The notes below the pieces were generated by a model. That model saw only the letters and a list, made by a program, of their open reading frames with translations, was not told the DNA's origin and did no database searches. Below are positions 5,306-35,178 of a stretch of 64,000 nt of DNA, piece after piece. Source of the stretch: Felixounavirus LF82P5; sequence record OZ035800.1, one strand, 5' to 3'. Every line of letters begins with the position of its first letter. The first letter of the stretch is position 1. The translations under genes were made by a program, and so were the position numbers.

Positions 5306-5316
5306 GGAACACAATA

Positions 5317-10571: not shown

Positions 10572-10582
10572 TAAATCCTATA

Positions 10583-10615: not shown

Positions 10616-10644
10616 GTTTCTTTTAAAAGTATTAAGGAATCACA

Positions 10645-11043
10645 ATGAAAACAGAATCTAGAGTAATTAATGGCAAGAAAGTAAATATCGTTCTGCTTGG
10701 GGCAAGAGATGGTATTAAGATGTCTATGAAGTTGGGTAAGATTGTTGTTCCAACATTTGCACAGATGCTGTCAAGTCTGACTGATAAAGATAAGAAAGAA
10801 GCTCCAATGGTTCCATTTAAAGAACTTGTTGAAGCTTGTTTTGACAGAATTGAAGAAATTAACCTTGAAGAGATGGCTACCTTATTATTTCAAGGGGCAA
10901 CTGTTGACGACTTCCCACTTAATATTGATACGCACTTCCAAGCAAACTACGGTGAGTTTATTGATTACTTAGCATTTGCGCTGGAGGCAAACTTCGGAAG
11001 TTTTTTCGAAGCAAGCATTTTCAAAAGCCTAACTTCTCAGTAA
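10645..11043 (+). CDS. Tail assembly chaperone (G-like)
   Basis: 132 aa ORF immediately upstream of tape measure; contains slippery TTTTTTC near its 3' end. Confidence 0.55.
   Translation: MKTESRVINGKKVNIVLLGARDGIKMSMKLGKIVVPTFAQMLSSLTDKDKKEAPMVPFKELVEACFDRIEEINLEEMATLLFQGATVDDFPLNIDTHFQANYGEFIDYLAFALEANFGSFFEASIFKSLTSQ
11001..11007 (+). other. Slippery heptamer T_TTT_TTC for -1 programmed ribosomal frameshift in tail chaperone gene
   Basis: Zero-frame codons AGT TTT TTC; -1 frame continues open into 11046..11285 ORF. Confidence 0.55.
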
Positions 11044-11045
11044 AC

Positions 11046-11284
11046 ATGGGTAACACTCTACAGACACCACTGACTGATGCTGCTGTAGAGGCAACCTATG
11101 AAGAAGCAGACGAGATGAAATTTGTGCTTGCTATTTATGGTATGGAAGGGTGTAAAGAAACACTTGACCAACTCTTTGCTATGACATTCTCTGATTTATT
11201 ATCATTGAGACAATTTCTTGAAATTCAGAGGTCGTATAAAGAGGAAATTGCTTACAACGAACTTAGAAGAGCAGGAAAAATGTA

Positions 11285-11285
<1 letters not shown>
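11046..11285 (+). CDS. Tail assembly chaperone T-like part, probably expressed as -1 frameshift extension of 10645..11043
   Basis: ORF in -1 frame relative to upstream chaperone; its frame is open from 10965, overlapping the upstream ORF. Confidence 0.5.
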
Positions 11286-19304
<8,019 letters not shown>

Positions 19305-19306
19305 TA

Positions 19307-20494: not shown

Positions 20495-20503
20495 TTTCTT
20501 TAC

Positions 20504-20524
20504 AGGGGCTTGATAGCCCCTTTT
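20504..20524 (+). terminator. Rho-independent terminator between tail fibre genes
   Basis: Stem GGGGCT/AGCCCC, loop TGAT, TTTT. Confidence 0.65.
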
Positions 20525-20540
20525 AAGAGGAAAATTTATA

Positions 20541-22922
20541 ATGGCAGATTACAAGTTGAGTGAATTAAACTCAATCGATACAATCCGTTCAGATGACCTT
20601 CTTCATGTCAGAGTTAAAAAGAGACCTGAAATGCTTGGCGATGAAGACCGTCGAATGACCTATCAAGATTTCTTAGCATCTTTTAAACTTGAGAGATTTG
20701 TTCAGATTGCTGGTAGCACTATGACAGGTGACTTAGGGATTGTTAAGTTACTTTATGGTGGTAAGGTAGTATTTAACCCAACAGGCTCTTCTGAGATTAA
20801 TATTGGGGATGTTTTAAAGACTTTTAAAATCAACGCAAATGGCCTTAAACTGACTATTGCAGACACTTCAAGGTCGGCAACTGTTTATCATACTCTGAAT
20901 AAGCCAAGCCCTAATGAACTTGGGATGAGAACTAATGAAGAGAATGATGCAAGATACTCAAGATTAGCTGCAAATAACATCTTTACCTTCCAACAGGTTA
21001 TTCAAGCAAATGGCGAAGCTATTAGACTAAAAAACTCTTCTGAGAACTCCCCGTTGTATATTAGAGGTCAGGATAGCACTGGTGCTAATAGGTGGTATGT
21101 AGGTAATGGTTCAGGGAATGATGATGTTATTATCCACAACTACAAGACAGGTTGTGAAGTTAATCTGTCTAGTGTTGCTGCTATTAGCAAAACACTAAGA
21201 ATCACTGGTCAAGTTCAACCATCTGACTTCTCTAACTTAGATGCTAGATACTTTACTCAGACAGTAGCTAATCAGAGATTTGCACAGTTAGCTGCGAATA
21301 ACAATTTCACTGGCACTAACACGTTTAGCAGAAACCTACTTATTATCAGTGACAGTGCTGCTTTAAGGTTGAAAAATGCAACAACTAGCTCACTATTCAT
21401 TCAGGGTGTTGACTCTCAGAACACTAACAGGTGGTATGTAGGGAACGGGGATAACACAGCCTCTGTGCTGCTACACAACTATGTACACGGTTCAAATATC
21501 AGACTTGAGAATGGCTATATCTCAGTCAACCAGAACTTCAGAATCACTGGTCAAGTTCAACCTTCGGATTGGACTAATATTGACTCTAGATATATTCCGG
21601 CAGCAACTTTGAGTAACCTACCTAAGCTTAATGTTGCTAACACATTTGTGAATGTGCAAACTATTGTATCAAATAATGAAGGCGTAGTATTAAGAAACTT
21701 AACACAGGGGCAGCCACAATATATCCGTGGTGTTGATACCCAGAATGTATCTAGGTGGTGGGTAGGTGTGGGTGGCACAAATTCTACTGATGTGGCATTA
21801 AACAACAGCTACTCTGGGACTCAAATTACTCTTATGCCTTCAGCGATTAAGGCTAATAAGAACCTAACCATTACTGGTCAAGTTCAACCTTCTGATTGGT
21901 CTAACTTAGATGCTAGATATTTTGTTAAAACTCAGTTATTAAACCAATCCTTAATGACTGTTTCTGTAGATAACCTTGAAAACCCTTCAGGTTTTAATCT
22001 TGGATATTCAGGTTTTGTCAGAAACAATCAGGTTGCTAGTGGACTGAGAGAATTGGCAATTCATGTTGCTCACTCTAATAAGACTGCTGCACATGCAAGA
22101 GGAATCTCTTTTGTGTATGGCTCAAATGGACTGGCAACATTTACCTATGCCTATGACAAAAATGGTGACTATGCCGGAGAGGCACAGCTTTACACAACTG
22201 ATTTTAAACCAACCCCTTCAGATATCGGTGCATACACTAAAGCTGAAACTGACCAGAAGATTGCACAGGCAGTAAGTGACTCTACAGACCTTAATAAAAT
22301 CTACCCAGTTGGTATTGTAACGTGGTTTAACAGTAATGTTGACCCTAATACGGCACTTCCTGGTCTAACTTGGACGTACCTTAACAATGGTGTTGGTAGA
22401 ACTATCAGGATTGCAGCAGCAAACGGTTCAGATGTTGCTACAACAGGTGGTTCAGATTCTGTGACGCTAGCTGTTGGTAACTTACCATCACACACCCATA
22501 GTTTCTCTGCTACCACTTCATCTTTTGATTATGGTACGAAGAGCACTAATAGTACTGGTGGTCATACTCACTCTGTAAGTGGTACAACAAGTGCTGCTGG
22601 TAACCACGCCCACCACTTAGGTCTGCTATTGGTTAATGGTGGTGATGCTCAGTATGGTTACACAACTGTTAGCAATAACAAGACGAGAACTCTTGACTGG
22701 CTTGACAGAACTGATAACAAGTTCCCTAACACTAACACAACTGGTAACCATACACACACATGGTCTGGTACTACAAGTAACACTGGTGCTCACACCCACT
22801 CTGTAGGTATTGGTGCTCACACCCATACAGTTAGTGGTAACACTGGTGGTACAGGTTCTGGTTCAGCATTTAGTGTCACTAACCAGTTCTACAAGTTAAT
22901 GGCTTGGGTGAGAACTGCTTAA
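20541..22922 (+). CDS. Long tail fibre protein with three repeated domains and His-x-His tip
   Basis: 793 aa; three copies of ...RWYVGNG...ITGQVQPSDWSNLDARYF domain; C-terminal SHTHS, GGHTHS, GNHAHH, GNHTHT, GAHTHS repeats. Confidence 0.75.
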   Translation: MADYKLSELNSIDTIRSDDLLHVRVKKRPEMLGDEDRRMTYQDFLASFKLERFVQIAGSTMTGDLGIVKLLYGGKVVFNPTGSSEINIGDVLKTFKINANGLKLTIADTSRSATVYHTLNKPSPNELGMRTNEENDARYSRLAANNIFTFQQVIQANGEAIRLKNSSENSPLYIRGQDSTGANRWYVGNGSGNDDVIIHNYKTGCEVNLSSVAAISKTLRITGQVQPSDFSNLDARYFTQTVANQRFAQLAANNNFTGTNTFSRNLLIISDSAALRLKNATTSSLFIQGVDSQNTNRWYVGNGDNTASVLLHNYVHGSNIRLENGYISVNQNFRITGQVQPSDWTNIDSRYIPAATLSNLPKLNVANTFVNVQTIVSNNEGVVLRNLTQGQPQYIRGVDTQNVSRWWVGVGGTNSTDVALNNSYSGTQITLMPSAIKANKNLTITGQVQPSDWSNLDARYFVKTQLLNQSLMTVSVDNLENPSGFNLGYSGFVRNNQVASGLRELAIHVAHSNKTAAHARGISFVYGSNGLATFTYAYDKNGDYAGEAQLYTTDFKPTPSDIGAYTKAETDQKIAQAVSDSTDLNKIYPVGIVTWFNSNVDPNTALPGLTWTYLNNGVGRTIRIAAANGSDVATTGGSDSVTLAVGNLPSHTHSFSATTSSFDYGTKSTNSTGGHTHSVSGTTSAAGNHAHHLGLLLVNGGDAQYGYTTVSNNKTRTLDWLDRTDNKFPNTNTTGNHTHTWSGTTSNTGAHTHSVGIGAHTHTVSGNTGGTGSGSAFSVTNQFYKLMAWVRTA
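21201..21889 (+). repeat. Three copies of a roughly 110-codon domain repeat in long tail fibre gene
   Basis: ATCACTGGTCAAGTTCAACC at 21201 and 21543, ATTACTGGTCAAGTTCAACC at 21870; protein repeat ITGQVQPSD(F/W)(S/T)N(L/I)D(A/S)RY. Confidence 0.75.
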
Positions 22923-22929
22923 TCCCTTG

Positions 22930-22958
22930 TTGACTGATTATTAAGATGGTGTTAATAT
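22930..22958 (+). promoter_or_regulatory. Sigma70-like promoter TTGACT-17-TAATAT upstream of small membrane-protein genes
   Basis: -35 TTGACT 22930-22935, 17 nt spacer, -10 TAATAT 22953-22958. Confidence 0.5.
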
Positions 22959-22983
22959 TCTTTATGGGTATTCTCACCATCTT
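22943..22983 (+). promoter_or_regulatory. 9-bp perfect inverted repeat AAGATGGTG ... CACCATCTT in leader of small membrane-protein operon
   Basis: Arms at 22943-22951 and 22975-22983, 23 nt apart, overlapping the -10 and start site region. Confidence 0.4.
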
Positions 22984-23001
22984 GGCTGATGAGGTGATTA
23001 A

Positions 23002-23196
23002 ATGCCTACAATCCTAGCAATTCTTCTAAAAAATCTAGGTAGCTTCTTCTGGAAACTCATTTTATCCCTTCTAAGTGAATACATGATTGAGAAAGTGTTC
23101 TTTAAGCTTGCAAGATACCTTGCGAGTAAAACAGACACACCTATTGATGATGAGTTCGTAGATAACTTAGAAAAAGCTTTTAAGGGGGAGAAATAA
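23002..23196 (+). CDS. Small hydrophobic protein (possible lysis/membrane protein)
   Basis: 64 aa, hydrophobic N-terminal segment ILAILLKNLGSFFWKLILSLL; GAGGTG RBS; downstream of TTGACT-17-TAATAT promoter. Confidence 0.4.
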   Translation: MPTILAILLKNLGSFFWKLILSLLSEYMIEKVFFKLARYLASKTDTPIDDEFVDNLEKAFKGEK

Positions 23197-23568
23197 ATGA
23201 AGTGGCTAGAGGAAGCTTTTAAAAATAATATTGGTGCAATTGTAGTTGGTATTTTTAGTGTTATTGGGATGTATACCACTATGCAAGTTTCAAGTGGTAA
23301 GCAAGAAGTGTCTGTCACAACAAAGTTACAGCAGCTAGATAATTATTCCAAAAGTAACTATTCAGCTATTCGTGATTTACAGTCTGACATGAGACTGATT
23401 CAGCTAGGGATGGAGAACCAGAAAGTTCAGTTAGAGAATGTTAAGGGTGAAAACGCAAAACTTACCAAAACTCTTGATAAATTCTCTGACAGTGTGAATA
23501 ATCTGGCTCAATCAGTATCAGCCCTCCAAGCTATTACTGAAAAGAACACAAAGAATACTGAAAAATAA
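23197..23568 (+). CDS. Single-pass membrane protein with coiled-coil domain (holin/antiholin or spanin-like candidate)
   Basis: 123 aa; one TM helix NIGAIVVGIFSVIGMYTTM then Q/L/N-rich coiled coil; last gene before bidirectional terminator. Confidence 0.4.
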   Translation: MKWLEEAFKNNIGAIVVGIFSVIGMYTTMQVSSGKQEVSVTTKLQQLDNYSKSNYSAIRDLQSDMRLIQLGMENQKVQLENVKGENAKLTKTLDKFSDSVNNLAQSVSALQAITEKNTKNTEK

Positions 23569-23575
23569 AGTTTAA

Positions 23576-23601
23576 GGCTCCTTTTTACGGGAGCCTTTTT
23601 T
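23576..23601. terminator. Bidirectional terminator at convergent junction of structural and minus-strand blocks
   Basis: Stem GGCTCC/GGAGCC followed by TTTTTT; T-rich on opposite strand too. Confidence 0.65.
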
Positions 23602-23604
23602 GTT

Positions 23605-24504
23605 TTACTTACCTACTGACAGAGGTGCTTCAATCTTCCCTGCATGTTGGTAGTTGTTAATGCCACCAATAAAATCACTTGCAGTAAGATGTTTTAAGTC
23701 ACTTAAAGTGTTAAGTGGTACACCAATCTCAAAAGTAGGTGCATGGAACTCTTCGTTGTTCATCAGTTCATAAACCTGCTTCATATGATTCTGATAAATC
23801 TGAGTATCCCCAAAGACACCTATCAAGTATCGTGGAGTGTACCCAGTCATCTTACAAAGAACTTCCAGAATAAAACCATAAGACGCAATATTAAACGGAA
23901 GTCCTAAAAAGGTGTCTACAGAACGTTGATACCATTGTAAGTCAACTTCACCTTCGTTAGTGATATAAATCTGAAACAGAACATGACAAGGTGCTAAAGC
24001 CATCGAGTTGGCTGCAATATCTGCTGCATTCCAAGCATTAACAAGCATGTAACGGTCTGTGATATCACCTTTCATCTTCGTTACTAAGGTCTCTAACTGG
24101 TCTACAACACAACCATTATGACCTTCAAAGTTTCTCCACTGAACCCCGTAGATTCTCCCACCTGCATCCTCTAACCAGTCTTGCTCAGAAGAATAGTTAG
24201 AGCTTAACCAGCGTTTAAAGTCATCTGACCAGATAGTCCAGCGTTCTCCATCATTTTCACCCCAAGTGCGATAACGGAGTTCACCAAGTTTATTCTCACC
24301 ATTCAGGAACCATAAAGCTTCCCCAATAACTTGCCGTGTAAACACCTGTTTAGATGTTAAGAGTGGGAAACCAGTACGCATATCAAAACGAAACTGTGGT
24401 GGAGCAAATGCAGAGATAACATCTCCAGTTCGTGTAGTACGCAGTTCACCAACGGATAAAACATGGTTCAGGATATTTTTGTAACTTGAATCTGCTTGTG
24501 ACAT
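23605..24504 (-). CDS. thyA: Thymidylate synthase (ThyA family)
   Basis: RTGDVIS, ALWFLNG, YGVQWR, LAPCHVLFQIY (catalytic Cys), YQRSVDTFLGLPFNIASY, GDTQIYQNH; adjacent to DHFR. Confidence 0.85.
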   Translation of the reverse strand: MSQADSSYKNILNHVLSVGELRTTRTGDVISAFAPPQFRFDMRTGFPLLTSKQVFTRQVIGEALWFLNGENKLGELRYRTWGENDGERWTIWSDDFKRWLSSNYSSEQDWLEDAGGRIYGVQWRNFEGHNGCVVDQLETLVTKMKGDITDRYMLVNAWNAADIAANSMALAPCHVLFQIYITNEGEVDLQWYQRSVDTFLGLPFNIASYGFILEVLCKMTGYTPRYLIGVFGDTQIYQNHMKQVYELMNNEEFHAPTFEIGVPLNTLSDLKHLTASDFIGGINNYQHAGKIEAPLSVGK

Positions 24505-24505
24505 A

Positions 24506-25051
24506 TCAAAAGTGTCCTTTTACTTGTGGAACATAAATTTCAAAAGTTGCTTTACCATCCTCTGATGGTTTTGACTGTACCTTTGTAAATACACGGTTAT
24601 CATACAGCTTCTCAAAGAAGTTTTCAAAAGGTAAATGCACAGTAGCCTCTTCAGTAACTTTATGGAAGACTGTATGGAACACCACACCAGCATACGGTAA
24701 AGCATTGACAAGGACACCTGCACCACCAATTACAAAGACATCTTCATCAATAGAGCTATCAAGATACTTCAAAAATGCTCCAAAGGATTCTTTGCTGGCC
24801 TTAGCATACATTACACCATCTTTGCCAAAATCTATACCTAAGTATGGTACAGAATTTGTTAAGATTAGGTTTGCACGTTCTGGTAGAGGTTTACTACCCA
24901 GAGTCTTAAAAGTCTCATTACCCATGACTACTAAGTTATTTTTAGTGAGTCTCTTAAACTCTTGCATGTCCTGTTTATGTCGAGGCCACGGCATACCAGT
25001 CGGTGTACCAAATTCACCGTTTTCACCACTTGCAAATATTAGTTTAATCAT
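24506..25051 (-). CDS. folA: Dihydrofolate reductase
   Basis: 181 aa; N-terminal MIKLIFASGENGEFGTPTGMPW pattern typical of DHFR; 1 nt gap from thyA. Confidence 0.75.
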   Translation of the reverse strand: MIKLIFASGENGEFGTPTGMPWPRHKQDMQEFKRLTKNNLVVMGNETFKTLGSKPLPERANLILTNSVPYLGIDFGKDGVMYAKASKESFGAFLKYLDSSIDEDVFVIGGAGVLVNALPYAGVVFHTVFHKVTEEATVHLPFENFFEKLYDNRVFTKVQSKPSEDGKATFEIYVPQVKGHF

Positions 25052-25308
25052 TTTGTAAACCCTTTCTTAATGAACCAGTTGATGACACTCTTCACAACTT
25101 TACTACGATGGTAGATAAAATGTGGAGATGGTTGGTATGAACCATAAGCCCAGAAAGCGATAATTTCATTACACCCTGTGCATCGGGTACTTTCTTCAGC
25201 AATATGACCGTTGACTATTTCACTTACCTCACCTTGTAAGTCTGTACACCCGCAATGTGGACAACGGATAGGTGTTCCATCAGACTCATAGCAGTGTTCA
25301 ATTTTCAT
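25048..25308 (-). CDS. Zinc-ribbon protein (hypothetical)
   Basis: 86 aa with CPHCGC ... CTGCNE Cys pairs. Confidence 0.45.
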   Translation of the reverse strand: MKIEHCYESDGTPIRCPHCGCTDLQGEVSEIVNGHIAEESTRCTGCNEIIAFWAYGSYQPSPHFIYHRSKVVKSVINWFIKKGFTK

Positions 25309-25824
25309 CTATTTAACCTCAAAAACTGGTTCAAGAACCAATATAAAGTCTACACAGTCATCTTCTTCATCCAGAATACCATCAAAGTTCTTAGGTACAA
25401 AGTCGAAGAGGCTCATAGAATATCGGTCAGAAGTAACCCTGATAGTGTTCCCTATATTCTCTACAGTTAATATTGTACGGCTTTCTGTTACCTCACTTAG
25501 AAGATTACTCACAAAGTCATCTAAGAAGTGTTTCATCAGTGACTTGAAGCCTTTAGGGTAATCTGTACCAGAGTATGTTTCAATCTGAGGAACAAGCTTA
25601 ACATTTATACTAGTCTTTGTTAAGAACGTTTTAGAGAACATGCTATCAGGTAGCTTACAAACAGTCTTTCCAGTACCTTCATGTTCAATCTCAACAAAAC
25701 CAGCTTCGTCGCCACATGTAACTATTTTAAAAGATGCTTCATTCTCATACTGTGAAGCCATAAACTTTTTAAGCATTTCTTTAAGGAAATCTGCATGAGC
25801 ATCTTGTAAGTAGATATCAATCAT
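25309..25824 (-). CDS. Hypothetical protein
   Basis: 171 aa ORF, coupled to neighbours. Confidence 0.45.
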   Translation of the reverse strand: MIDIYLQDAHADFLKEMLKKFMASQYENEASFKIVTCGDEAGFVEIEHEGTGKTVCKLPDSMFSKTFLTKTSINVKLVPQIETYSGTDYPKGFKSLMKHFLDDFVSNLLSEVTESRTILTVENIGNTIRVTSDRYSMSLFDFVPKNFDGILDEEDDCVDFILVLEPVFEVK

Positions 25825-25837
25825 AGTTAATCACCTA

Positions 25838-26197
25838 TTATGGGAACAAGCACTTAATGTCATCGTTTTTGAAAACAAAACTTGTGTAGTTGTGGCCATC
25901 AACATCCAACCAAACAGCCTGAACATCCACACCATCAAGATTGTGGTAAAGTTCTTTGATGAAGTGGTCTTTCACAATCTGGCTGCTAGTTGTTTCCAGC
26001 TTAATGTTCGAGATTGCTGAACCTACAGCCATATAGCCCATGACCCGTTTCTTCTCAGTATGCTTAATCTTACCATCTTTGTAAGCCATAATGAGATTGG
26101 AAAGAATTTTTACACCATAATACTTTTCAAGGTGAGTAGGTACACCATAAAAGCCTAATGCGAAGTTTTCAGAGTGGATAATGTTTTCACGTTTCAT
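25838..26197 (-). CDS. Hypothetical protein
   Basis: 119 aa ORF. Confidence 0.45.
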   Translation of the reverse strand: MKRENIIHSENFALGFYGVPTHLEKYYGVKILSNLIMAYKDGKIKHTEKKRVMGYMAVGSAISNIKLETTSSQIVKDHFIKELYHNLDGVDVQAVWLDVDGHNYTSFVFKNDDIKCLFP

Positions 26198-26198
26198 A

Positions 26199-26498
26199 TT
26201 AATCTGCCAACCTTAAATTGAAATTAACACCAAATTTTTCACATACTTCCAACATATACTCAAGGGAGACGTTACCAGTGAGATGGATTATGTTGGATAC
26301 ACGAGCCTGAGAGATACCACAAATTTTAGCAACTTGCTCTTGAGAAAGTCCTCTGGATTTAATCTCTCTCTTAAAACGATGTGCAACGAAGTCTCTCATT
26401 TCGTCTACATCCATTGGACAAATATAACTCTCCATTTCAGCCTCTCTGTCAGCCTCCCAATCATCTTGTGGAGCATAAGGGTCAAAAACCTCATTCAT
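26199..26498 (-). CDS. Helix-turn-helix (XRE-like) DNA-binding protein
   Basis: C-terminal LSQEQVAKICGISQARVSNIIH HTH-like segment; acidic N-terminus; start taken at ATG 26498 (track start 26528 overlaps upstream gene). Confidence 0.45.
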   Translation of the reverse strand: MNEVFDPYAPQDDWEADREAEMESYICPMDVDEMRDFVAHRFKREIKSRGLSQEQVAKICGISQARVSNIIHLTGNVSLEYMLEVCEKFGVNFNLRLAD

Positions 26499-26703
26499 CT
26501 TTCTTCTTCCGTTTGCGTGAAGTGTCAATCAATGAATCTATGTTTGTAGCCCTAACCTTTTCACGTTCATCATTGAGATAATCATCAAGAGCCTTCTCAA
26601 TCTGTGAATCATCTTGACAGATGACTGTAAAGACTGTAAAGCCATCTGTATCATCAATTATATTACCATAACCGCTTCTGGGATGTAACTTTTTAAGAGC
26701 CAT
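26491..26703 (-). CDS. Hypothetical small protein
   Basis: 70 aa ORF with basic C-terminal tail RKRKKKDE. Confidence 0.35.
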   Translation of the reverse strand: MALKKLHPRSGYGNIIDDTDGFTVFTVICQDDSQIEKALDDYLNDEREKVRATNIDSLIDTSRKRKKKDE

Positions 26704-26704
26704 A

Positions 26705-27088
26705 TTAGATACCTGTACAGCTTCTGTTTTCTAAGAAATACTCAACACCATACATAGCTTTTTGCATCAAATCTTCTTTAAACTGAATACGATGATTGAG
26801 CATAGTTTGTACATCAATATCGTCATGGTGTTTCTCTTTAATATTTGCAGATTGTAGGAAATACTCTGCAAGAACACGATACTGATAGTCAGTTACCTTA
26901 TCAGTCATCTCTGTCAAAGACTCTTCAGAGATTGGTTTAAGTAGCTCACCATTAGCCAGAGCAACACCTTTTACAATCTGGCAAGTGTCTTCTGGAACAC
27001 CTGATAAGTCTACATTTGGAAGTTCTGTTGCATTGACTGGTAAATTCATTGCCATAACCATTGCAGCGGCTAATAAAATCTTTTTCAT
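26705..27088 (-). CDS. Secreted (signal-peptide) protein of unknown function
   Basis: N-terminal MKKILLAAAMVMAMNLPVNA signal peptide; GAGG RBS; first gene after repeat region A. Confidence 0.55.
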   Translation of the reverse strand: MKKILLAAAMVMAMNLPVNATELPNVDLSGVPEDTCQIVKGVALANGELLKPISEESLTEMTDKVTDYQYRVLAEYFLQSANIKEKHHDDIDVQTMLNHRIQFKEDLMQKAMYGVEYFLENRSCTGI

Positions 27089-27132
27089 AATGACCTCAAA
27101 GTTATATTAAATTTTGTATTACATTGAGTATA

Positions 27133-27161
27133 AAAATAAGCTATAACACCTGACTTGTCAA
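27133..27161 (-). promoter_or_regulatory. Possible sigma70-like promoter for secreted-protein gene (minus strand)
   Basis: Minus-strand TTGACA (27161..27156), 17 nt spacer, TATTTT (27138..27133). Confidence 0.3.
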
Positions 27162-27287
27162 CAGATTTTATAGCTTATTTGGCAGATTTTTTATAAGGCT
27201 ACTGCCATCCTTCCATACTTTACCGAACATCACCCTACTGAACCCGACCCTACCTCACCCGACCCAACCGAACCGTACCGAGCACAG

Positions 27288-27326
27288 CCTTATTAAAAGA
27301 CCCTCTTTAAAGACCTTTTAAAAAGG
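27288..27326. repeat. 39-bp core repeat copy 1 (CCTTATTAAAAGACCCTCTTTAAAGACCTTTTAAAAAGG)
   Basis: Exact copy also at 27426-27464; near-palindromic arms; contains AAAGACC twice. Confidence 0.85.
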
Positions 27327-27425
27327 TAAGTCTCATTTTAATGTAGCTGAGACTAACTACCCATACCTCACCTTACCACGCCGAACAGCACCGGACTATA
27401 CCAGACCATGCCGAACATTGCCGAG

Positions 27426-27464
27426 CCTTATTAAAAGACCCTCTTTAAAGACCTTTTAAAAAGG
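27426..27464. repeat. 39-bp core repeat copy 2
   Basis: Identical to 27288-27326. Confidence 0.85.
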
Positions 27465-27480
27465 AGCCTCCGAAGAGGCT
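27458..27480 (-). terminator. Minus-strand rho-independent terminator after 146-aa gene
   Basis: On minus strand AGCCTC-TTCG-GAGGCT followed by CCTTTTT; same stem sequence as terminator at 44024. Confidence 0.6.
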
Positions 27481-27491
27481 ACCTAGTCAAC

Positions 27492-27932
27492 TTAGAAAGG
27501 TTTTCTACGTTGCTTGTTAATGTTAGCTTTCATAGCAGCTAAATGGTTTTGCTGTTCAATTAGTCGTGAACGTTCTTGATGGCTAAGTACCATAGTGTTC
27601 ACATTCTCAATCGCTTGAGTGGCTTGCTTTAAAGCACGACCAATCTTACCAGACATTTTACGTTTTGCAATAGTTGCTTGATGCTTAGGTTCAACCACAC
27701 GATAACCAACACCCATTGAAGCAACCAGATAAATCTTCTCTTCTTTAAGAAGCTTCTCAATAAACTTCTCAAGTCGATTTAAGCGTGTAAGCGCATAAGC
27801 CTTCATTTCATCTTCGTACTTAACAATGTCACCTTGATAAGTTGGCTTCACAATACCTAAGAAGGTGTCCATCTCAGAATGTGATACAGTGTCACCGTAA
27901 CTAAACTTTGCTGCTAATGCTTTTGTATTCAT
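27492..27932 (-). CDS. Hypothetical protein (repeat-flanked cassette gene 2)
   Basis: 146 aa, basic coiled-coil C-terminus; start 2 nt after upstream stop; followed by minus-strand terminator. Confidence 0.5.
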   Translation of the reverse strand: MNTKALAAKFSYGDTVSHSEMDTFLGIVKPTYQGDIVKYEDEMKAYALTRLNRLEKFIEKLLKEEKIYLVASMGVGYRVVEPKHQATIAKRKMSGKIGRALKQATQAIENVNTMVLSHQERSRLIEQQNHLAAMKANINKQRRKPF

Positions 27933-27934
27933 AA

Positions 27935-28540
<606 letters not shown>

Positions 28541-28616
28541 TTAGTTGATTGTTAAGTTGTTTGTAAAGAACCCTCAACAGAAGACTCTTTAGAAACTTGG
28601 TAGATTTTTAACGTGC

Positions 28617-28861
28617 ATACTACCATCCACCCATACCGTGCCACACCACACCGGACCGTACCATTCCCAACCCTACTACACCAGACCTTATTAAAAGACC
28701 CTCTCCAAAGACCTTTTAAAAAGGTAAGTCTCATTTTAATGTAGCTGAGACTAACTACCCATACATTACCGCACCATATTATACCCTACCCCACCATACT
28801 TCACTGCACCGAGCCACGCATTACATCACTTAAAAACCCTTTTCAAAGACTCTTAAGTGAT
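28617..28861. repeat. Repeat region B: CA-rich tracts + core copy 3 + hairpin + degenerate inverted-repeat copy
   Basis: Core at 28686-28724 (2 mismatches), hairpin 28725-28758 identical to region A copy, 9-bp inverted repeat ATCACTTAA..TTAAGTGAT at 28825-28861, period about 139 bp. Confidence 0.8.
28686..28724. repeat. 39-bp core repeat copy 3 (2 mismatches)
   Basis: CCTTATTAAAAGACCCTCTCCAAAGACCTTTTAAAAAGG. Confidence 0.85.
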
Positions 28862-28926
28862 GCTGGTGAGTACCCGTTGGTTTATGATGCTCAGTATACT
28901 CACCAAATTTCCTATGTCAACAACTT

Positions 28927-29073
28927 TTATAAAAAAGTTCTGATAGCTATATGCGTCACGAAACAAAAGATTGTAAACAAGACACCCATTGCAAAAGATG
29001 TGTCCAAAAGCTTACTTGCAACGTATGACAATACAAAGACAACCAGTATAAATAGAATGACTGTACTGAACAT
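28927..29073 (-). CDS. Possible small two-helix membrane peptide (48 aa), not in ORF track
   Basis: Hand translation MFSTVILFILVVFVLSYVASKLLDTSFAMGVLFTIFCFVTHIAIRTFL; start 3 nt after ligase stop on same strand; competing plus-strand ORF 28877..29086 judged less likely. Confidence 0.3.
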   Translation of the reverse strand: MFSTVILFILVVFVLSYVASKLLDTSFAMGVLFTIFCFVTHIAIRTFL

Positions 29074-29076
29074 AGT

Positions 29077-30180
29077 TTACTCATAATCCCTAATAACTAG
29101 CCCTACAGGAAACTGTAAAGAACCTTTACGAGTCATCTTCTGGAACTGAACAGTTAAAGGTTTCCCGATAAACTCTTCAGGATGTTCAGCAAGATACTGT
29201 TTCTTCTCGTGTGTAGTTTTCCATGAAACATCTACAAAGACGTTAGGAAGAGTCTCTACAACGAACTTACCATGACCACGCTTATCGGTCTTTACACCAG
29301 TCACTTTAAACTCTTCAGTGTGCATCTTCTTGTGCTTAATCAAGAAGTATGAACGGTGACAACACTCATAGAAGGAGTCTTCAGAGATTGAACGGTACAT
29401 TGCACCTTCAAACTTAGCTTCAACCCACTTATCATGAGCTTCATCAAACTCTTCCCAAGAATTTACACGACGAGATTTAACAGGAACAACTTTACAGCCG
29501 TCTCTAAAGTCATTCAATGGTGAAGTCTCAATAATATCTCTACGCTCAGGCCACGTTTTAGTACTGTCACAGATATCATACCAGTAGAACTTAAGTAAGT
29601 GTCTGTCAGGATTGTCTTCATTTTTAATCATAGAGACAATATCTTCTAAGTCCCACCCATGAGCATAAATCTCACCATCAAATTCATCAACATCTTTATG
29701 GAGCCTCAACATTGCCATAATGTCAGGTATTAGCTCAGTAGGAATTTTATAAATAGTGTTCTCACGAGAATATGCTGTAAATACACTGCCAATGCTTAAG
29801 TGTCTTGAAATTCTACAACGTACACCATCAAGCTTCGGTTGGGCATCAGCAGGGAATTTCAAATACTTTGCATGGCTAACCTTTGCAGTATCATGAGCAA
29901 GCTGTACACCTACCTTCTCAGTATTCTGTGCAGACTCTTTTGTGTAAGCATAACCTTTGCGGTCAACTTGCTTTTTATACTTAGCAGCAACTTCAAAGAG
30001 GGCTTGCTGTTCAGCATTACGCTCATTCTTTTTACCGATGTTTTTAGGTTCTGCTGTATACTCTTCAAACATCATCTTGCCATTTTCTTTACCGTAGGTT
30101 GTAATAACTTTGTCACCTACAGCAACACATGACCAGACGTTAAAAGAGCCGTCTTTATTTTGTTTGTACAGAATTGTCAT
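29077..30180 (-). CDS. ATP-dependent DNA ligase
   Basis: 367 aa with adenylation motif PKLDGVR (KxDG). Confidence 0.8.
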   Translation of the reverse strand: MTILYKQNKDGSFNVWSCVAVGDKVITTYGKENGKMMFEEYTAEPKNIGKKNERNAEQQALFEVAAKYKKQVDRKGYAYTKESAQNTEKVGVQLAHDTAKVSHAKYLKFPADAQPKLDGVRCRISRHLSIGSVFTAYSRENTIYKIPTELIPDIMAMLRLHKDVDEFDGEIYAHGWDLEDIVSMIKNEDNPDRHLLKFYWYDICDSTKTWPERRDIIETSPLNDFRDGCKVVPVKSRRVNSWEEFDEAHDKWVEAKFEGAMYRSISEDSFYECCHRSYFLIKHKKMHTEEFKVTGVKTDKRGHGKFVVETLPNVFVDVSWKTTHEKKQYLAEHPEEFIGKPLTVQFQKMTRKGSLQFPVGLVIRDYE

Positions 30181-30383
30181 TTTCTCTTACCACCAATCTC
30201 TACGTCGATAACTTGAACATCGCCAGCAACATCAAACTTATGTATGATGCTTTCCACAGTATAAGTCCAACCATCAATGCGAACCATCTCACCTTCTCGT
30301 GGAACTATTGGATTACGTTGAGCTACAGTTGTAGTGGAGTGAACAACATCATAACGATAGATATAGTTTACTAGGACTTCCAT
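30177..30383 (-). CDS. Hypothetical protein
   Basis: Start set to ATG 30383 with GAGG RBS to avoid overlap with lipoprotein gene; stop overlaps ligase start. Confidence 0.4.
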   Translation of the reverse strand: MEVLVNYIYRYDVVHSTTTVAQRNPIVPREGEMVRIDGWTYTVESIIHKFDVAGDVQVIDVEIGGKRK

Positions 30384-30393
30384 CGTGAAAACC

Positions 30394-30630
30394 TCACTCA
30401 ATAACCGTAGTATGTGATTGTCCATTTTTGCCATAGCTGTAAGATGTTGTTGTTTGAGAGTTTGGACATCTGACAACAACAATATCTCTGCTTATAGCAT
30501 CACCATGTAACTTGTATACTCTGCAATCTTGCATCTCTGGTGGGAGGCTATAAGAAGCATTTTTATCTTCATAAGAAGGGTTGCAGCCAGATAGAAAAAT
30601 AACACCAAGCGCAATTACCACTTTCCACAT
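30394..30630 (-). CDS. Small lipoprotein (candidate superinfection-exclusion protein)
   Basis: MWKVVIALGVIFLSGC signal peptide with lipobox LSGC; AGGAG RBS 7 nt upstream of ATG 30630. Confidence 0.55.
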   Translation of the reverse strand: MWKVVIALGVIFLSGCNPSYEDKNASYSLPPEMQDCRVYKLHGDAISRDIVVVRCPNSQTTTSYSYGKNGQSHTTVIE

Positions 30631-30643
30631 AACACTACTCCTA

Positions 30644-30799
30644 TTACTGTTCACGATGTTCTACTTCTCTGTACGTTCGTCGATAGTATATAATAAGCTG
30701 TGCTAACTCGTTGCTTTTAACATCTGAACGTAGCAGTTGCCAATCAAAACCTTTACCGACTCTTCCATATAAACTAAACAGTTTTACTTTGCGTTTCAT
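30644..30799 (-). CDS. Hypothetical small basic protein
   Basis: Start chosen at internal ATG 30799; weak RBS. Confidence 0.3.
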   Translation of the reverse strand: MKRKVKLFSLYGRVGKGFDWQLLRSDVKSNELAQLIIYYRRTYREVEHREQ

Positions 30800-30815
30800 T
30801 TTGGTATACCAATAC

Positions 30816-31028
30816 TCAGAAGTCAATATTAATACGTTCGCCCTTAAGGACTCCAGTACGGTCTCTTGCAATCTTGCCGTCAACAATAAGGATATGTGCA
30901 GCCCTTAAAGAGTCACTATTAAAAGCTTTTACGAACTTACTAGGCATCACTACAATGGGCATCTCCTGAATCAACTCTGGAGTATAGCAATTGTCGTGAA
31001 GTTGCTGAATAACGTCTGCAAGTGTCAT
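30816..31028 (-). CDS. Hypothetical small protein
   Basis: ATG 31028 with GGAGA RBS (track start 31043 is TTG); ATGA overlap with upstream gene. Confidence 0.4.
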   Translation of the reverse strand: MTLADVIQQLHDNCYTPELIQEMPIVVMPSKFVKAFNSDSLRAAHILIVDGKIARDRTGVLKGERINIDF

Positions 31029-31234
31029 TTTTGATGTCTCCAATACTCAATGTCAATAAGTTCTTGTGCAATGCTTTTAAGGTTACCTTTCAAGAAAACC
31101 TTCTCAGAACCTGAAAGAGATGAATTGTCAATTAACCTGTTCATTCTCTCAAACAACTTCTGCTTACGATTTTTGATAGTCTCCTTTGAAGCACCTTTCA
31201 TCATTGCTGCATGGGTTCTTCCACGATGGCTCAT
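31025..31234 (-). CDS. Hypothetical small basic protein
   Basis: 69 aa, strong GGAGGG RBS. Confidence 0.45.
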   Translation of the reverse strand: MSHRGRTHAAMMKGASKETIKNRKQKLFERMNRLIDNSSLSGSEKVFLKGNLKSIAQELIDIEYWRHQK

Positions 31235-31285
31235 AATCCCTCCTATACAAGATGTAGTATAAGGTACTCTTCCCTGAGCACCTTG

Positions 31286-31798
31286 TCAACTTAGTTTTGC
31301 AAACTCTCCGTGGAGTTTAATAGCAGCTTCACAGTAAGCTTTATGGGCTTCTTCTTCTGTTGTGTATGTTCCTATATGTATGGTCTTGCCATTATGGTTA
31401 ATCTGGGCTATCCACTTACCAGACTTGCTTCTACTTGTGCCTTTTAAGTTTTTTGATGTTCTAGGTTGTCTCCTATTAGACATGTTCTGCTCTTTTGTGG
31501 CCTCTCTTAGATTGTCCCAAGCGTTATTCAAACCATCTCCATCTTTGTGGTCAATGTGTTTATCAGGCCACTTACCTGTCATCCAGAACCAAGCAATTCG
31601 GTGATTGCCTGTCCTGTATCCTAAAATCTGTGTGTGCATATACACACCAGACCTTGTGCGCTTAATTGCTCCGGCTTGGCTTCCAATAACCACCCTACTA
31701 CTATGTGGAGGTCTGCCAATCCATGTTAAGACCCCTGTTTCGGGGTCATAATCTAACCAAGACTTTAACTGTTCATGTGTGAATCCACAATCTCTCAT
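31286..31798 (-). CDS. HNH homing endonuclease with AP2-like DNA-binding domain
   Basis: WLDYDPETGVLTW, HRIAWFW, HIDHKDGDGLNNAWDNLREA (HNH), C-terminal KSGKWIAQINHNGKTIHIGTYTTEEEAHKAY (AP2-like); paralogue of 41391..41891; start overlaps DNA polymerase stop by 1 nt. Confidence 0.7.
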   Translation of the reverse strand: MRDCGFTHEQLKSWLDYDPETGVLTWIGRPPHSSRVVIGSQAGAIKRTRSGVYMHTQILGYRTGNHRIAWFWMTGKWPDKHIDHKDGDGLNNAWDNLREATKEQNMSNRRQPRTSKNLKGTSRSKSGKWIAQINHNGKTIHIGTYTTEEEAHKAYCEAAIKLHGEFAKLS

Positions 31799-34497
31799 CA
31801 ATGCACCTCATACCAGCTCTTACCAACCTTACCTGTGCCAGTTACAAGCGTCTCACTCTTCAAACCTAAATTCTTAGATGCCTGACCATACATCCAGTCA
31901 GTTATGGCTTTAACTTCTTGAGTCATACTTTCTGGGCATTCCCAACTGTTTTCATCGTGGTATGCCAGCAAAAGCCTAGCACCGATTGCTGGTTTTCGTC
32001 CATTTAATTTTGTCAACCCTTCTTCACATGCTCTTCTACAAGCAAGGTTAATTGCCTCATTTTGAATCTGAGCCTCCGAACCCATAAGCAAATAATTCAA
32101 TAACTTATGTGGAGATTTACACCACAACCAAGCTCCAGCAACCTTTACAAAACCCCCTTTAGAGATTGCAGCAGTCTTACCAAACACCTCTTCAAGTGCC
32201 TTTTTAGTTGCTTTGTAGTCAGCTTCCAAGTCATCTAGCAGCTTCTTAATTTTAGGCAAACGAATAAAGTAAGTCTGTTTAGTCAGCGCACCTTCCTGAG
32301 TAGTTGCAGCTTTAATCGTCTTAGCAAACTTCTCATCACCTGCACCGAACAGTAGTGCATAGATACCATTCTTAGCTTTCTTACGACCTTTGCTAATCTC
32401 ATGAAGAAGATTCTCATCCTGAGTAGCTCGACAAGTCAAGATATCCTGCTCATCATTCAAGCTAAAGTAAATACTGTTCAGTGTATGTGCATCAGTCCCT
32501 GAATAGACAACGTACAGGTCATTCTCAGAGTCATAACGAAGGTACTTATCAATCTCTGGGTTGAGGTACTCATCAAAGTGTTTGCAGTAATAGCGTCCAT
32601 CTTCTTGACGAATAAACTCAATCTCTTCTTTACCTTGCGTTACCGCTTTGGTGAACTCTTTATCACCCATAAAGTTACAAAGAAGAACTAGCTGGGCTGA
32701 GTTCATATCTACAGAGACAACGTTAGTACCTTCCTCACAAATCCACACTGCCCTCATTGGTTCCCCATAGACAGCAGCACCAGACGGTACGTTTACAATA
32801 CCATATTGTGTCATACGTCCAGTTGAAGTACCAAATACCATTGCACCAGCACTAAGGCGACCATCTGGACGAATCTGGTTCAGCCAACCTTTCTCGTCAT
32901 CCTTTGAGTTCTCAATAGTTCTGCGTCGGTGCATCAAAGTATAGTACTTAGCAATCTTCTGTCCAAGCTCACCTTCAATCGTATCATAAGATGATTCAGT
33001 AAGTTTTGGTGAAGTACGGATTAAGCAAGGTTCAAGCAAATCTGTGTATTTCTTCACAGACCAGTTATGCTCGATGTACTGTACACCTTCATGTTCAACA
33101 TAACTCAAACCACACCGCTCAACCATTTCCTGCCACTTAGGATGCTTTGTAATCATCTTTTTATTGTCTTTGAAACGACAAACTTTGACAGGGCGACCAT
33201 CTGAGTCTTTCTTGTAGTTCCAGTCATCTGGAATCCAACCAACTGATTTCAAGTAGTCTTTAACAACTGCTACCTGAGTCATACGAGAAACTTCAAACTC
33301 AATTGGTGTATATGGTGCATCAATCAAACCTGTGTAGCGACTTGACTCAAGTTCAAAGTGGTTAACAACATGACTGTTATAGTACTTCACAGTTTTGACT
33401 GTTTTTACTGGCTTCCAGTCTTTGCATTTCTTACCAATCTTTGCGTTCAACTCATTGCAAATTGCACGAGCATCCTTCATTGCTACAAAACCTTCCTTGT
33501 ACTCTTCACCAGTTACAGAGTTGGTTGGTGTATAGCAATTTCTCTTTTCAATGTTAAAAATCTTTGTAGTTGGTTTACCAAATGGCTTGATTTCGTATGT
33601 CTGCATCTCACCGTTACGCACCTGCTGACGGTACTTTGTCTTAGGGTACTTGGTAATTCTCTTCAGTCCATCTGCATGACCAAATGTTTCAACATACTCA
33701 TTCCAAGCTTTTGCAAACTCTTCTCCAGTCACTTTACCTTTGGTCTTAATAGTTGGTGGAAGGTGTGGTTCAACTTCTGAAGCAAGCTCATTAGTCAACT
33801 TGTCAAGCTCCTTTACATGGAACTCCATAAGCTCCTTATCAGCTTTCCAACCATTGATAGCTTGTTGACTCATCCAGAAAGATGTTTCTTTAGCTCGCAT
33901 GTAGGTTTCATAAGTATCTACGCCACACTTCTTCAGCTTGAGATATTCATTATCCAGTGCACGTTTAGTTTTGGCGTTAATACGGATATCTTCTACAACA
34001 CGAGTGAAGATTTCTGCATTCCAAACACCCCAATGCTCAATCTCTGGCTTACGAACACCAACACGAGCACCCCATGCAGCCAAGCCATGAGCACCCTTAT
34101 AACCTTTTGGGGTTGGTCTATCCATCCACTGAACACGAGACTGGATAAGAGAATCCTGAAAGAAATTACTCCACGGTTTACACTTTGGATTATCAAAGTT
34201 CCACAAATCAGGTGCAATGTGATTGAAAACCCACCAGTCATAACCCAGACCATTATGGATGCAAAGTCGTTTTGCCTTTAACGCAAACTCAATACCTTCA
34301 CGTAAACCGCCTTTGATGTACTTGGTGTATTTGTGACCGAGGATAGGCTCATCTGTAAAGACCCATACAGGTGGCTCTTCATCGTCAGATTTATAGTCTG
34401 CGAAAGCCATTACGTGCACTTTAGTGAACTCAAGGAGTAAACCATCAGTTTCTGTATCACCAACTAAATGTAAGTTTTTAAAATCTATGTTTTCCAT
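31798..34497 (-). CDS. DNA polymerase, family A (PolA-like) with 3'-5' exonuclease domain
   Basis: Exo motif DTETDGL near N-terminus; motif B-like GRKKAKNGIYALLFGAG; motif C LAYHDENSWE; ATG 34497 with AGGGAG RBS preferred over 34527. Confidence 0.85.
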   Translation of the reverse strand: MENIDFKNLHLVGDTETDGLLLEFTKVHVMAFADYKSDDEEPPVWVFTDEPILGHKYTKYIKGGLREGIEFALKAKRLCIHNGLGYDWWVFNHIAPDLWNFDNPKCKPWSNFFQDSLIQSRVQWMDRPTPKGYKGAHGLAAWGARVGVRKPEIEHWGVWNAEIFTRVVEDIRINAKTKRALDNEYLKLKKCGVDTYETYMRAKETSFWMSQQAINGWKADKELMEFHVKELDKLTNELASEVEPHLPPTIKTKGKVTGEEFAKAWNEYVETFGHADGLKRITKYPKTKYRQQVRNGEMQTYEIKPFGKPTTKIFNIEKRNCYTPTNSVTGEEYKEGFVAMKDARAICNELNAKIGKKCKDWKPVKTVKTVKYYNSHVVNHFELESSRYTGLIDAPYTPIEFEVSRMTQVAVVKDYLKSVGWIPDDWNYKKDSDGRPVKVCRFKDNKKMITKHPKWQEMVERCGLSYVEHEGVQYIEHNWSVKKYTDLLEPCLIRTSPKLTESSYDTIEGELGQKIAKYYTLMHRRRTIENSKDDEKGWLNQIRPDGRLSAGAMVFGTSTGRMTQYGIVNVPSGAAVYGEPMRAVWICEEGTNVVSVDMNSAQLVLLCNFMGDKEFTKAVTQGKEEIEFIRQEDGRYYCKHFDEYLNPEIDKYLRYDSENDLYVVYSGTDAHTLNSIYFSLNDEQDILTCRATQDENLLHEISKGRKKAKNGIYALLFGAGDEKFAKTIKAATTQEGALTKQTYFIRLPKIKKLLDDLEADYKATKKALEEVFGKTAAISKGGFVKVAGAWLWCKSPHKLLNYLLMGSEAQIQNEAINLACRRACEEGLTKLNGRKPAIGARLLLAYHDENSWECPESMTQEVKAITDWMYGQASKNLGLKSETLVTGTGKVGKSWYEVH

Positions 34498-34542
34498 TTT
34501 TACTCCCTCTAAAATCATTAACCTCATACATTACTGCAAAAA

Positions 34543-34548
34543 ATTATA
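34543..34548 (-). promoter_or_regulatory. Candidate -10 element (TATAAT) for DNA polymerase operon
   Basis: Perfect TATAAT on minus strand about 45 nt upstream of polymerase ATG; no clear -35. Confidence 0.35.
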
Positions 34549-34693
34549 AAAAGCAAGTTGACAATGTACTTGACAAGGTGTTAATCTTTGCGAAGTGGGT
34601 TTTTACTTAAAAGGTTACTTAACAGTTTAACTATACAGATACTTTAAAACTCTTAAAAGATTATTTAATAGCTTTTTAAAAAGCTTTAAAGTA

Positions 34694-34712
34694 TAACGTA
34701 TAGAATACGTTA
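34694..34712 (+). promoter_or_regulatory. Perfect 8-bp inverted repeat TAACGTAT-AGA-ATACGTTA overlapping a TAGAAT -10-like hexamer (operator-like site)
   Basis: Palindrome read directly; TAGAAT at 34701-34706; about 45 nt upstream of first plus-strand gene. Confidence 0.45.
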
Positions 34713-34755
34713 AGATAAAAGATTAAAACTTAATAGTTACTTAAAAGAGGCTTAC

Positions 34756-35178
34756 ATGCAGAAAATGTTTGTTCACCCAGACATAGCTGACTTTGTTAGA
34801 GCTTTGCAGAAGTTGGAAGAACTTGACATTGCTGCTCAACGGGAATATGCTCACCATCACAGGAGAATGGTTGATATACAACATGAAATAGAGTTGTCTG
34901 AAGACTATGAAGATGACTTAAAATGCTCTGTATTTGAGCATATGAAAGATGTTGCTACAGCGAGACGTAAAGCTAAAGACACAGTTGCTTTACTAGATTC
35001 TCTTAAAAAGAGGTTGCAAAGTGGTACAGACCTGTGTAATCTAGCATCACTGATTAACGATGTTGAAACTTCTTGGGATAGGCACTATTATCCACGTTCT
35101 GAAAAGACACTTGACTTTTCTTCATCCGAAAACTTAAAATGTTCTAGAAAGAAACTTAACCAACTGAGAGAGAAATAA
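34756..35178 (+). CDS. Hypothetical early protein
   Basis: 140 aa, first gene of plus-strand block after divergent control region; AAGAGG RBS. Confidence 0.45.
   Translation: MQKMFVHPDIADFVRALQKLEELDIAAQREYAHHHRRMVDIQHEIELSEDYEDDLKCSVFEHMKDVATARRKAKDTVALLDSLKKRLQSGTDLCNLASLINDVETSWDRHYYPRSEKTLDFSSSENLKCSRKKLNQLREK

Follow-up and report, generated by a model that had tools for sequence, protein, structure and literature searches.

The closest described counterpart of the region studied here is the interval between genes 96 and 97 of Salmonella phage Felix O1, for which Whichard et al. 2010 (PMC3185647) assumed divergent early promoters with replication genes on either side. They saw no obviously sigma-70-like sequences in this gap, called temporal regulation unknown and reported read-through of many terminators as unexplained. 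According to the same genome paper, the early promoters, temporal control and replication origin of Felix O1-type phages had never been mapped. The corresponding region of Felixounavirus LF82P5 (record OZ035800.1) lies in a 64-kb window of the 86-kb genome; "the window" refers throughout to this whole stretch, and the remaining 22 kb of the genome were scanned as well. A megablast search with positions 34000-35300 matched 242 phage records and placed the window in Felixounavirus, with 100% identity to LF82P5 and ~98% to Felix O1. In annotated relatives, the region is flanked on the left by the minus-strand DNA polymerase gene (Felix O1 gp96) and on the right, on the plus strand, by gp97 (a hypothetical protein of 140 amino acids), a gene for 266 amino acids (gp98), a deoxynucleoside monophosphate (dNMP) kinase gene and a T7-type primase/helicase gene. 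These flanks identify it as the interval between genes 96 and 97 in a phage of the Felix O1 type.

We propose, with a probability of roughly 0.55, that this gap serves a Felix O1-type (Ounavirinae) phage as its region of divergent early promoters, built from a rightward promoter (P_R), a leftward promoter (P_L), an array of CTTWANAG repeats and a candidate operator. The feature is of an ordinary kind, a phage early divergent control region, which the literature already assumes for this locus. The Felix O1 paper describes no promoters, repeats or palindrome, whereas P_R, P_L, the array and a clade-specific candidate operator are proposed here in a locus that is the same and ~98% identical. A previous sequence-only reading of the window had recognized a regulated early promoter region, and this general view holds: the gap is the sole point of divergence between the polymerase-side and rightward transcription units, conservation is higher in its promoter core than in the coding DNA on either side, and such a region was assumed by Whichard et al. 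2010. Every element listed in that reading (TATAAT, two TTGACA, TTAAAAG repeats, an inverted repeat and TAGAAT) is present where it was placed. The extent assigned to the region, 228 bp from 34528, needs revision, as its left boundary rests on an ATG at 34527. The long polymerase open reading frame does open at this in-frame ATG, which is not kept in the alignment with SUSP1. A more likely start is the minus-strand ATG at 34497..34495, which is preceded by a Shine-Dalgarno sequence, GAGGGAG, at 34509..34503 (together 34495..34509) and whose equivalent is the annotated start in Suspvirus and Mooglevirus records. With the polymerase start moved from 34527 to 34497, the gap spans 34498-34755, that is, 258 bp with 74% A+T.

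A conserved pair of divergent promoter candidates

The sigma-70-type promoter P_R (34558..34587, plus strand) combines a -35 hexamer TTGACA (34558-63), an 18-nt spacer and an extended -10 element, TGtTAATCT (34579-87). It has all features expected of this promoter type (a TTGACA-like -35, a spacer of 16-19 nt, a TAnnnT -10 and a TGn extension), scores 12.1 in a simple sigma-70 weight-matrix scan, and would start transcription at about 34593-95. The spacer holds a second TTGACA (34570-75). Both copies had been described as lacking a matched -10 box; their presence is confirmed, but the first is paired with TGtTAATCT at 18 nt. Chance was assessed with 5000 dinucleotide-preserving shuffles of the 258-bp gap, and two TTGACA on one strand appeared in 0.06% of them, which places the pair beyond chance. 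The second copy occurs only in Felixounavirus, Suspvirus and Mooglevirus.

The gap was compared across 28 distinct sequences from these three genera, and with more distant relatives whose gap DNA is no longer alignable (Yersinia phage P778, Pectobacterium phages Wc4-1 and Arno162, and Erwinia/Kolesnikvirus phages). The promoter scan covered seven lineages, at least five of them genus-level, and in all seven the best sigma-70-like site of the gap is found at the same position, with scores of 12-14.5. This site consists of a TTGACA at -180 to -198 from the gp97 ATG, a spacer of 17-18 nt and a TAnnnT hexamer, usually with TGn. The block 34552-34605 is the most conserved part of the locus, with 85-94% identity between genera, compared with 83-85% for the N-terminal coding region of the polymerase and 68-77% for gp97.

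On the polymerase side, the candidate sigma-70 promoter P_L (34528..34556, minus strand) has a -35 hexamer TTGCTT (34556..51), a 17-nt spacer and a -10 hexamer TAATGT (34533..28), from which transcription would start near 34521. The -35 hexamer is invariant (AAGCAA on the plus strand), and the spacer is fixed at 17 nt though its sequence varies. Between genera the -10 hexamer takes the forms TAATGT, TAAGGT, TAGTGT and TAGGGT, in which T1, A2 and T6 never change. Analogous minus-strand sites stand back-to-back with the plus-strand promoter in the Yersinia, Pectobacterium and Erwinia relatives, for example TTGACC-17-CATACT in Pectobacterium. P_L is our preferred candidate for the polymerase-side promoter, ahead of the TATAAT hexamer (34548..34543, minus strand) that lies inside its spacer. 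In the sequence-only reading, this TATAAT was the polymerase -10 box, both TTGACA copies were orphans and the palindrome alone was the switch. The hexamer is a perfect consensus match and would leave a leader of 39 nt to the ATG at 34497. However, the sigma-70 scan found neither a -35 partner at 16-18 nt nor a TG extension for it, TATAAT on either strand is at chance level (38% of shuffles), and the first TTGACA is accounted for by its extended -10. Moreover, the hexamer is kept only within Felixounavirus and is replaced by TGAAAC or a GAAGAT-type sequence in Suspvirus and Mooglevirus, while the rest of the region is conserved. We consider this arrangement very improbable.

Promoter-like sequences were also recorded elsewhere. 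The best sigma-70 consensus matches of the window are TTGACA-N17-TAGAAT at 39043-39071 and 39382-39410 (plus strand), and a further top match is TTGACA-N18-TAGAAT at 59045 (plus strand). All three lie on the plus strand of the rightward unit and are likely internal early or middle promoters, and TAGAAT appears to be the preferred -10 hexamer of this phage. A tandem TTGACA-like run at 54155-54184 is part of a coding region and is followed by a terminator ahead of the next gene; on these grounds it was treated as a chance occurrence. Promoter annotations in later records, such as that of phage ASO1B, were made by pattern matching only; in the ASO1B record, P_R was annotated computationally by another group, with a different -10 element.

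An array of repeats under selection

Downstream of P_R, from ~+13 to the gp97 ribosome-binding site, the gap carries an array of same-strand CTTWANAG repeats (34606..34747, plus strand). Copies start at 34606, 34618, 34631, 34652, 34664, 34676, 34684, 34729 and 34740, and degenerate ones at 34642 and 34714. The array is counted at 8-10 copies, neighbours being mostly 11-13 nt apart. The words take the forms CTTAAAAG, CTTAACAG, CTATACAG, TTTAATAG, CTTTAAAG and CTTAATAG, and the final copy overlaps the gp97 Shine-Dalgarno sequence GAGG (34747-50). This array is an undescribed element and the strongest non-random and selected feature of the gap, which the sequence-only reading, mentioning several TTAAAAG-type repeats, had noticed and underweighted. 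Three TTAAAAG copies (34607, 34653 and 34741) were obtained in 0.4% of shuffles, and five copies of CTTAANAG in 0/5000 (shuffle mean 0.10); the observed count of CTTWANAG was likewise reached in 0/5000. No other cluster of the repeat is present in the 64-kb window. Across six lineages of the three genera, core positions 1, 2, 3, 5, 7 and 8 were invariant in 45 of 48 cases (94%), positions 4 and 6 in 10 of 16, and the spacer bases in 34 of 59 (58%; core versus spacer, Fisher p = 1.6e-5). The excess of core over spacer invariance shows that the repeat word itself is under selection, and not merely the A+T content. The same layout, namely a promoter, ~20 nt of higher G+C, CTTAACAG-type repeats and then TAGAAT or TATAAT, is shared by the Yersinia, Pectobacterium and Erwinia phages despite their sequences not aligning with the window.

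The array coincides with unusual DNA. Positions 34599-34748 form the most A+T-rich 150 bp of the 86-kb genome (20% G+C), and no 100-bp duplex of the genome is less stable than 34639-34738, with -105 kcal/mol compared with a genome mean of -128.2 (standard deviation 5.1). A periodicity test confirmed that the spacings cluster at 11-13 nt, a result that does not distinguish a helical period. Within the array, the perfect 16-bp palindrome AGCTTTTTAAAAAGCT (34671..34686) is specific to this genome: the other Felixounavirus sequences compared have one T fewer in the T-run, which breaks the perfect symmetry, so that the palindrome is not a conserved feature. A link between CTTWANAG and terminators was considered and rejected, as the word lies just upstream of only 3 of 22 predicted terminators, and these cases are explained by the A-rich left arms of bidirectional terminators. 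A repeated palindromic element, ttattaaaagaccctCTTTAAAGaccttttaaaaagg, occurs twice in near-identical form in the leftward operon (27305-27312 and 27443-27450, ~138 bp apart), where the DNA (27071) is among the more A+T-rich of the genome.

A related set of words is found outside the window, at ~66.7-68.3 kb of LF82P5 OZ035761.1, in a 1.57-kb non-coding region between convergent, terminator-ended transcription units, with terminators on both sides. This region holds CTTAACAG nine times, CTAACAAG eight times and TCTTAACA seven times, at spacings of 10-11, 20-22 and 31-34 bp, and it is the next least stable DNA of the genome after the stretch in the gap. It includes the direct terminal repeat annotated in phage UAB_69; a direct terminal repeat was mapped experimentally in the close relative UAB_Phi87. 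In Erwinia phage phiEa104, TCTTAACA is present 12 times in the counterpart of this terminal non-coding region. The occurrence of related arrays beyond terminators, together with a spacing near one helical turn, favours action of the repeats at the DNA level.

Two known kinds of repeat resemble the array in part. ArcA boxes, bound by a regulator of the OmpR/PhoB type, consist of TGTTA repeats at 11 or 22 bp (PMC4173790). Like them, the array is made of direct repeats about one helical turn apart just past a predicted start, and the reverse complement of CTTAACAG contains TGTTA. However, TGTTA is found on the opposite strand in only one of the eight gap copies compared (34618), with TGTAT at 34631, and the G that is important for ArcA is T or A in most gap copies; the array therefore does not qualify as a set of ArcA sites. 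The terminal-region arrays are a better match, their words reading TGTTAAG on the opposite strand and resembling the ArcA direct repeats (TGTTA, 11 bp centre-to-centre). Iterons of plasmid and phage origins likewise are same-orientation repeats beside an A+T-rich segment and replication genes. The array differs from them in having an 8-nt core at a period of 11-13 nt instead of 17-22 bp, and no Rep- or O-type initiator was recognized in gp97 or gp98, so that it falls outside this class as well.

A clade-specific inverted repeat and its candidate regulator

The inverted repeat TAACGTAT-AGA-ATACGTTA (34694..34712) has perfect 8-bp arms centred on TAGAAT (34701-06) and is located ~50 nt before the gp97 ATG and ~110 nt downstream of P_R. 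Six variants are found in the three genera, all of which keep 7-8 pairs while the central triplet varies from AGA to AAC. Of the two double-sided changes, one turns C:G into T:A in the Mordin group, and the other, A:T to T:A, separates Felixounavirus from the rest. The observed pairing was equalled by 14/500 column shuffles and by no slid register. The central, -10-like hexamer is TAGAAT in the Felix, SUSP1, Yersinia and Pectobacterium phages, TATAAT in Erwinia and TAACAT in Mordin. Its distance to the ATG is 55-81 nt, the -35 partners it has are weak, and TAGAAT as such occurs in 24% of shuffles. In the Yersinia, Pectobacterium and Erwinia relatives, the kept TAGAAT or TATAAT is not surrounded by an inverted repeat. 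A metagenome scan with the promoter core returned no new palindrome variants, only four unrelated chance matches.

The leftward operon encodes a Cro/C1-type (XRE family) helix-turn-helix (HTH) protein (26199..26498, minus strand; Pfam HTH_3, E = 4.9e-10; PHROG 1373, transcriptional regulator). It was found in 260 records. Except for two weak Zymomonas matches, these are phages of the Felixounavirus, Suspvirus and Mooglevirus types; the Erwinia, Pectobacterium, Yersinia and Hafnia relatives have gp97 but lack the HTH protein. The palindrome and the second TTGACA thus occur in exactly the clade that bears the HTH protein. A plausible reading of this pattern is that the palindrome is the operator of the HTH protein, which would be a candidate binder of either the palindrome or the tandem TTGACAA repeat. 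The two compensatory changes and the shared distribution lend support to the operator-like character proposed in the sequence-only reading, which had also made conservation of the palindrome a point to be checked; it is kept in three genera and not beyond them.

The arrangement recalls lambdoid Cro/CI regions in that a dyad covers a -10-like hexamer within a divergent region and one of the controlled operons contains an XRE-type HTH gene. It differs from them in offering a single candidate site instead of tandem operators, in belonging to a virulent phage, and in the position of the site ~110 nt downstream of P_R. A further candidate, AAAAGCTTTA-N12-TAGAAT as a T4 MotA-dependent middle promoter, was dropped since it is not conserved in distant genera; Whichard et al. 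2010 noted that no MotA or AsiA is known in the Felix O1 group.

Proposed operation of the region

The elements with their non-randomness and conservation, the selection on the repeat core, the duplex stability and the shared distribution of palindrome and HTH gene are observed. From them we infer the following scheme, including its start sites, all binding events and the direction of regulation. As judged from conservation, the host sigma-70 RNA polymerase would start, after injection, at two back-to-back promoters whose -35 hexamers are one base apart. P_R would be read rightward into gp97, gp98, the dNMP kinase gene and the primase/helicase gene, and P_L leftward into the DNA polymerase gene starting at 34497. 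The CTTWANAG copies are candidate sites for one protein that would coat the DNA and set how much early transcription reaches gp97 and beyond; in a broader form of this idea, the bound factor would set the level of transcription or of translation. The inverted repeat of 7-8 bp appears to have been added over the conserved -10-like TAGAAT in Felixounavirus, Suspvirus and Mooglevirus. It would most likely serve as the operator of the HTH protein and provide feedback on rightward expression. The bound protein would either repress a second promoter, weak or dependent on an activator, or stand in the way of polymerase arriving from P_R.

Several results weigh against this scheme. By score, P_R ranks only ~30th among the sigma-70-like sites of the window, so that its support comes from conservation and not from its match to the consensus, and the score of P_L is modest (6.0-7.4). 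The inverted repeat is a single copy, unique in the whole genome, and perfect inverted repeats with arms of 8 bp or more and loops no longer than 10 arose in 21% of shuffles, so that taken alone it is at chance level. Its covariation is small, with only two double-sided changes among the six variants, and the recognition helix of the HTH protein, ISQ(A/S)RVSNI, is unchanged in the Mordin group, where the half-site ACGTAT becomes ATGTAT. The single copy, the weakness of the hairpin described below and the lack of a palindrome in more distant genera leave the operator reading unproven. For the array, searches with gp97 and gp98 (Pfam, PHROGs, NCBIfam and, for gp97, structure) identified no candidate binding protein. 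All its copies stand on the sense strand downstream of P_R, an arrangement just as compatible with a role in RNA. The words of the gap (mostly CTTAAAAG) and of the terminal region (TCTTAACA) overlap in CTTAACA and differ in fixed positions, so that a single common factor is possible, not assured. Finally, the literature searched held no transcription-start, footprint or binding data for Ounavirinae, including Felix O1, SUSP1 and Bas63.

Possible origin and leader functions of the A+T-rich stretch

The primary origin of phage T7 consists of promoters 1.1A/1.1B and an A+T-rich region, and oriF and oriG of T4 each consist of a middle promoter and a downstream unwinding element. A transcription-activated origin of this kind, compatible with the promoter reading, can be envisaged here: P_R would fire into the DNA that melts most easily in the whole genome, the transcript or the opened duplex would allow the T7-type primase/helicase and the polymerase to begin replication there, and the CTTWANAG repeats would act as iteron-like or phasing elements. 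The likeness to T7 and T4 lies in a promoter that fires into a short, meltable A+T-rich segment and in a T7-like replisome. The LF82P5 promoter differs in being of the host sigma-70 type, neither phage-polymerase- nor MotA-dependent, and its A+T-rich segment carries a selected array of 8-mers. In favour of an origin, P_R stands directly upstream of the least stable 100 bp, thus joining a promoter to a potential unwinding element, and this upstream promoter is conserved across the subfamily. The stretch also lies between the polymerase and primase/helicase genes, and the next least stable segments fall in the terminal repeat region, with its related words. The minimum of the cumulative GC skew is at the gap as well, but the coding strand changes at the same point, which accounts for this turn in full, so that the skew does not help with the question. 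Early promoters of phages are, moreover, often accompanied by A+T-rich leaders, Pfam, PHROGs, NCBIfam and, for gp97, structure searches revealed no initiator homologue in gp97 or gp98, and no origin mapping for Ounavirinae was present in the literature searched. An origin at this place seems to us possible, if rather unlikely. More far-reaching still is the idea that the CTTWANAG and TCTTAACA words are sites of one phage or host factor across Ounavirinae, which would mark the control and terminal-repeat regions and couple transcription from P_R to opening of the weakest duplex for the start of the T7-type replisome; we regard it as speculative and unlikely. If true, it would amount to a promoter-plus-iteron origin of a kind not described for Ounavirinae.

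The same stretch could instead act as RNA. The functional unit would then be the A+U-rich 5' untranslated region of ~160 nt made from P_R, with CUUWANAG bound by a protein on the mRNA, either as a translational operator reaching the gp97 Shine-Dalgarno sequence or in a boxA-like antitermination system, and with the inverted repeat folding as a hairpin. The placement of all copies on the sense strand downstream of the predicted start, and the overlap of the final copy with the Shine-Dalgarno sequence, agree with this. So does the lack of structure in the leader, which, folded as 184 nt, is no more structured than its shuffles (z = -0.79), as expected for an operator recognized by a single-strand-binding protein, and compensatory changes are the behaviour of an RNA stem. 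We take CTCTTAAAAGATTA at 34650-63 to be similar to the boxA plus spacer of lambda nutL, and CTTTAACA is presumably similar to the rrn boxA. Antitermination would also suit the terminator read-through left unexplained in Felix O1 (Whichard 2010). Against these points, the hairpin, whose AU-rich stem is closed by a 3-nt loop, is weak as RNA or as DNA (-3.5 to -5.8 kcal/mol) and lies outside the minimum-energy fold of the leader, and an Rfam scan of 34300-34950 with E up to 10 gave only noise, nothing near a gathering score. In the terminal region, related arrays are placed beyond terminators, an RNA site would not need the regular spacing of 11-13 nt, and no N-like or RegA-like protein was identified. 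We judge a function at the RNA level quite unlikely.

Neighbouring genes and annotations

The gp97 homologue (34756..35178, plus strand; 140 amino acids; PHROG 4039, function unannotated) is the first gene of the rightward unit. It was found in 299 phage records and is kept in all Ounavirinae genera searched, including phages of Erwinia, Pectobacterium, Yersinia and Hafnia. Its AlphaFold model is a generic helical hairpin (pLDDT 73), for which Foldseek gave no match below E = 0.05 in the PDB, and Pfam, PHROGs and NCBIfam yielded nothing informative on gp97 as a clue to the factor that binds the array. The following gene, gp98 (35180-35980), is labelled 'minor tail protein' in many records via PHROG 4251. 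Pfam gave no match for it, the homologues found were all close ones, and its identity falls to 43% with SUSP1 and 17% with Pectobacterium, which marks it as fast-evolving. As the gene sits in the replication module, the label looks unreliable.

On the polymerase side, Salmonella phage PMBT20 has its DNA polymerase annotated as two pieces with an endonuclease VII gene between them, and in Erwinia-type phages (Kolesnikvirus) the polymerase gene is separated from the control region by an HNH homing endonuclease. These cases suggest traffic of mobile endonucleases around the locus. The annotation of Erwinia phage phiEa104 includes a 'predicted T4 endoribonuclease RegB'; if this is right, processing of early mRNA at GGAG sites could matter for leaders such as that of P_R. 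Three records named 'Campylobacter phage A132/A126' and 'Staphylococcus phage SA1' (MG065664.1, MG065668.1 and GU169904.1) have a locus 96-99% identical to Felixounavirus, which points to contamination or chimeric assemblies.

Significance for Felix O1-type phages

Felix O1-type phages are widely used for the typing, biocontrol and therapy of Salmonella and E. coli. For this group, the analysis supplies coordinates for both early promoter candidates, a candidate operator together with a named HTH protein, and a repeat array that marks the control region and the genome ends. Should the array turn out to bind a regulator or to act in an origin, it would account for the shutdown of early expression or for the start of replication across the subfamily, and it would also provide a handle for engineering these phages.

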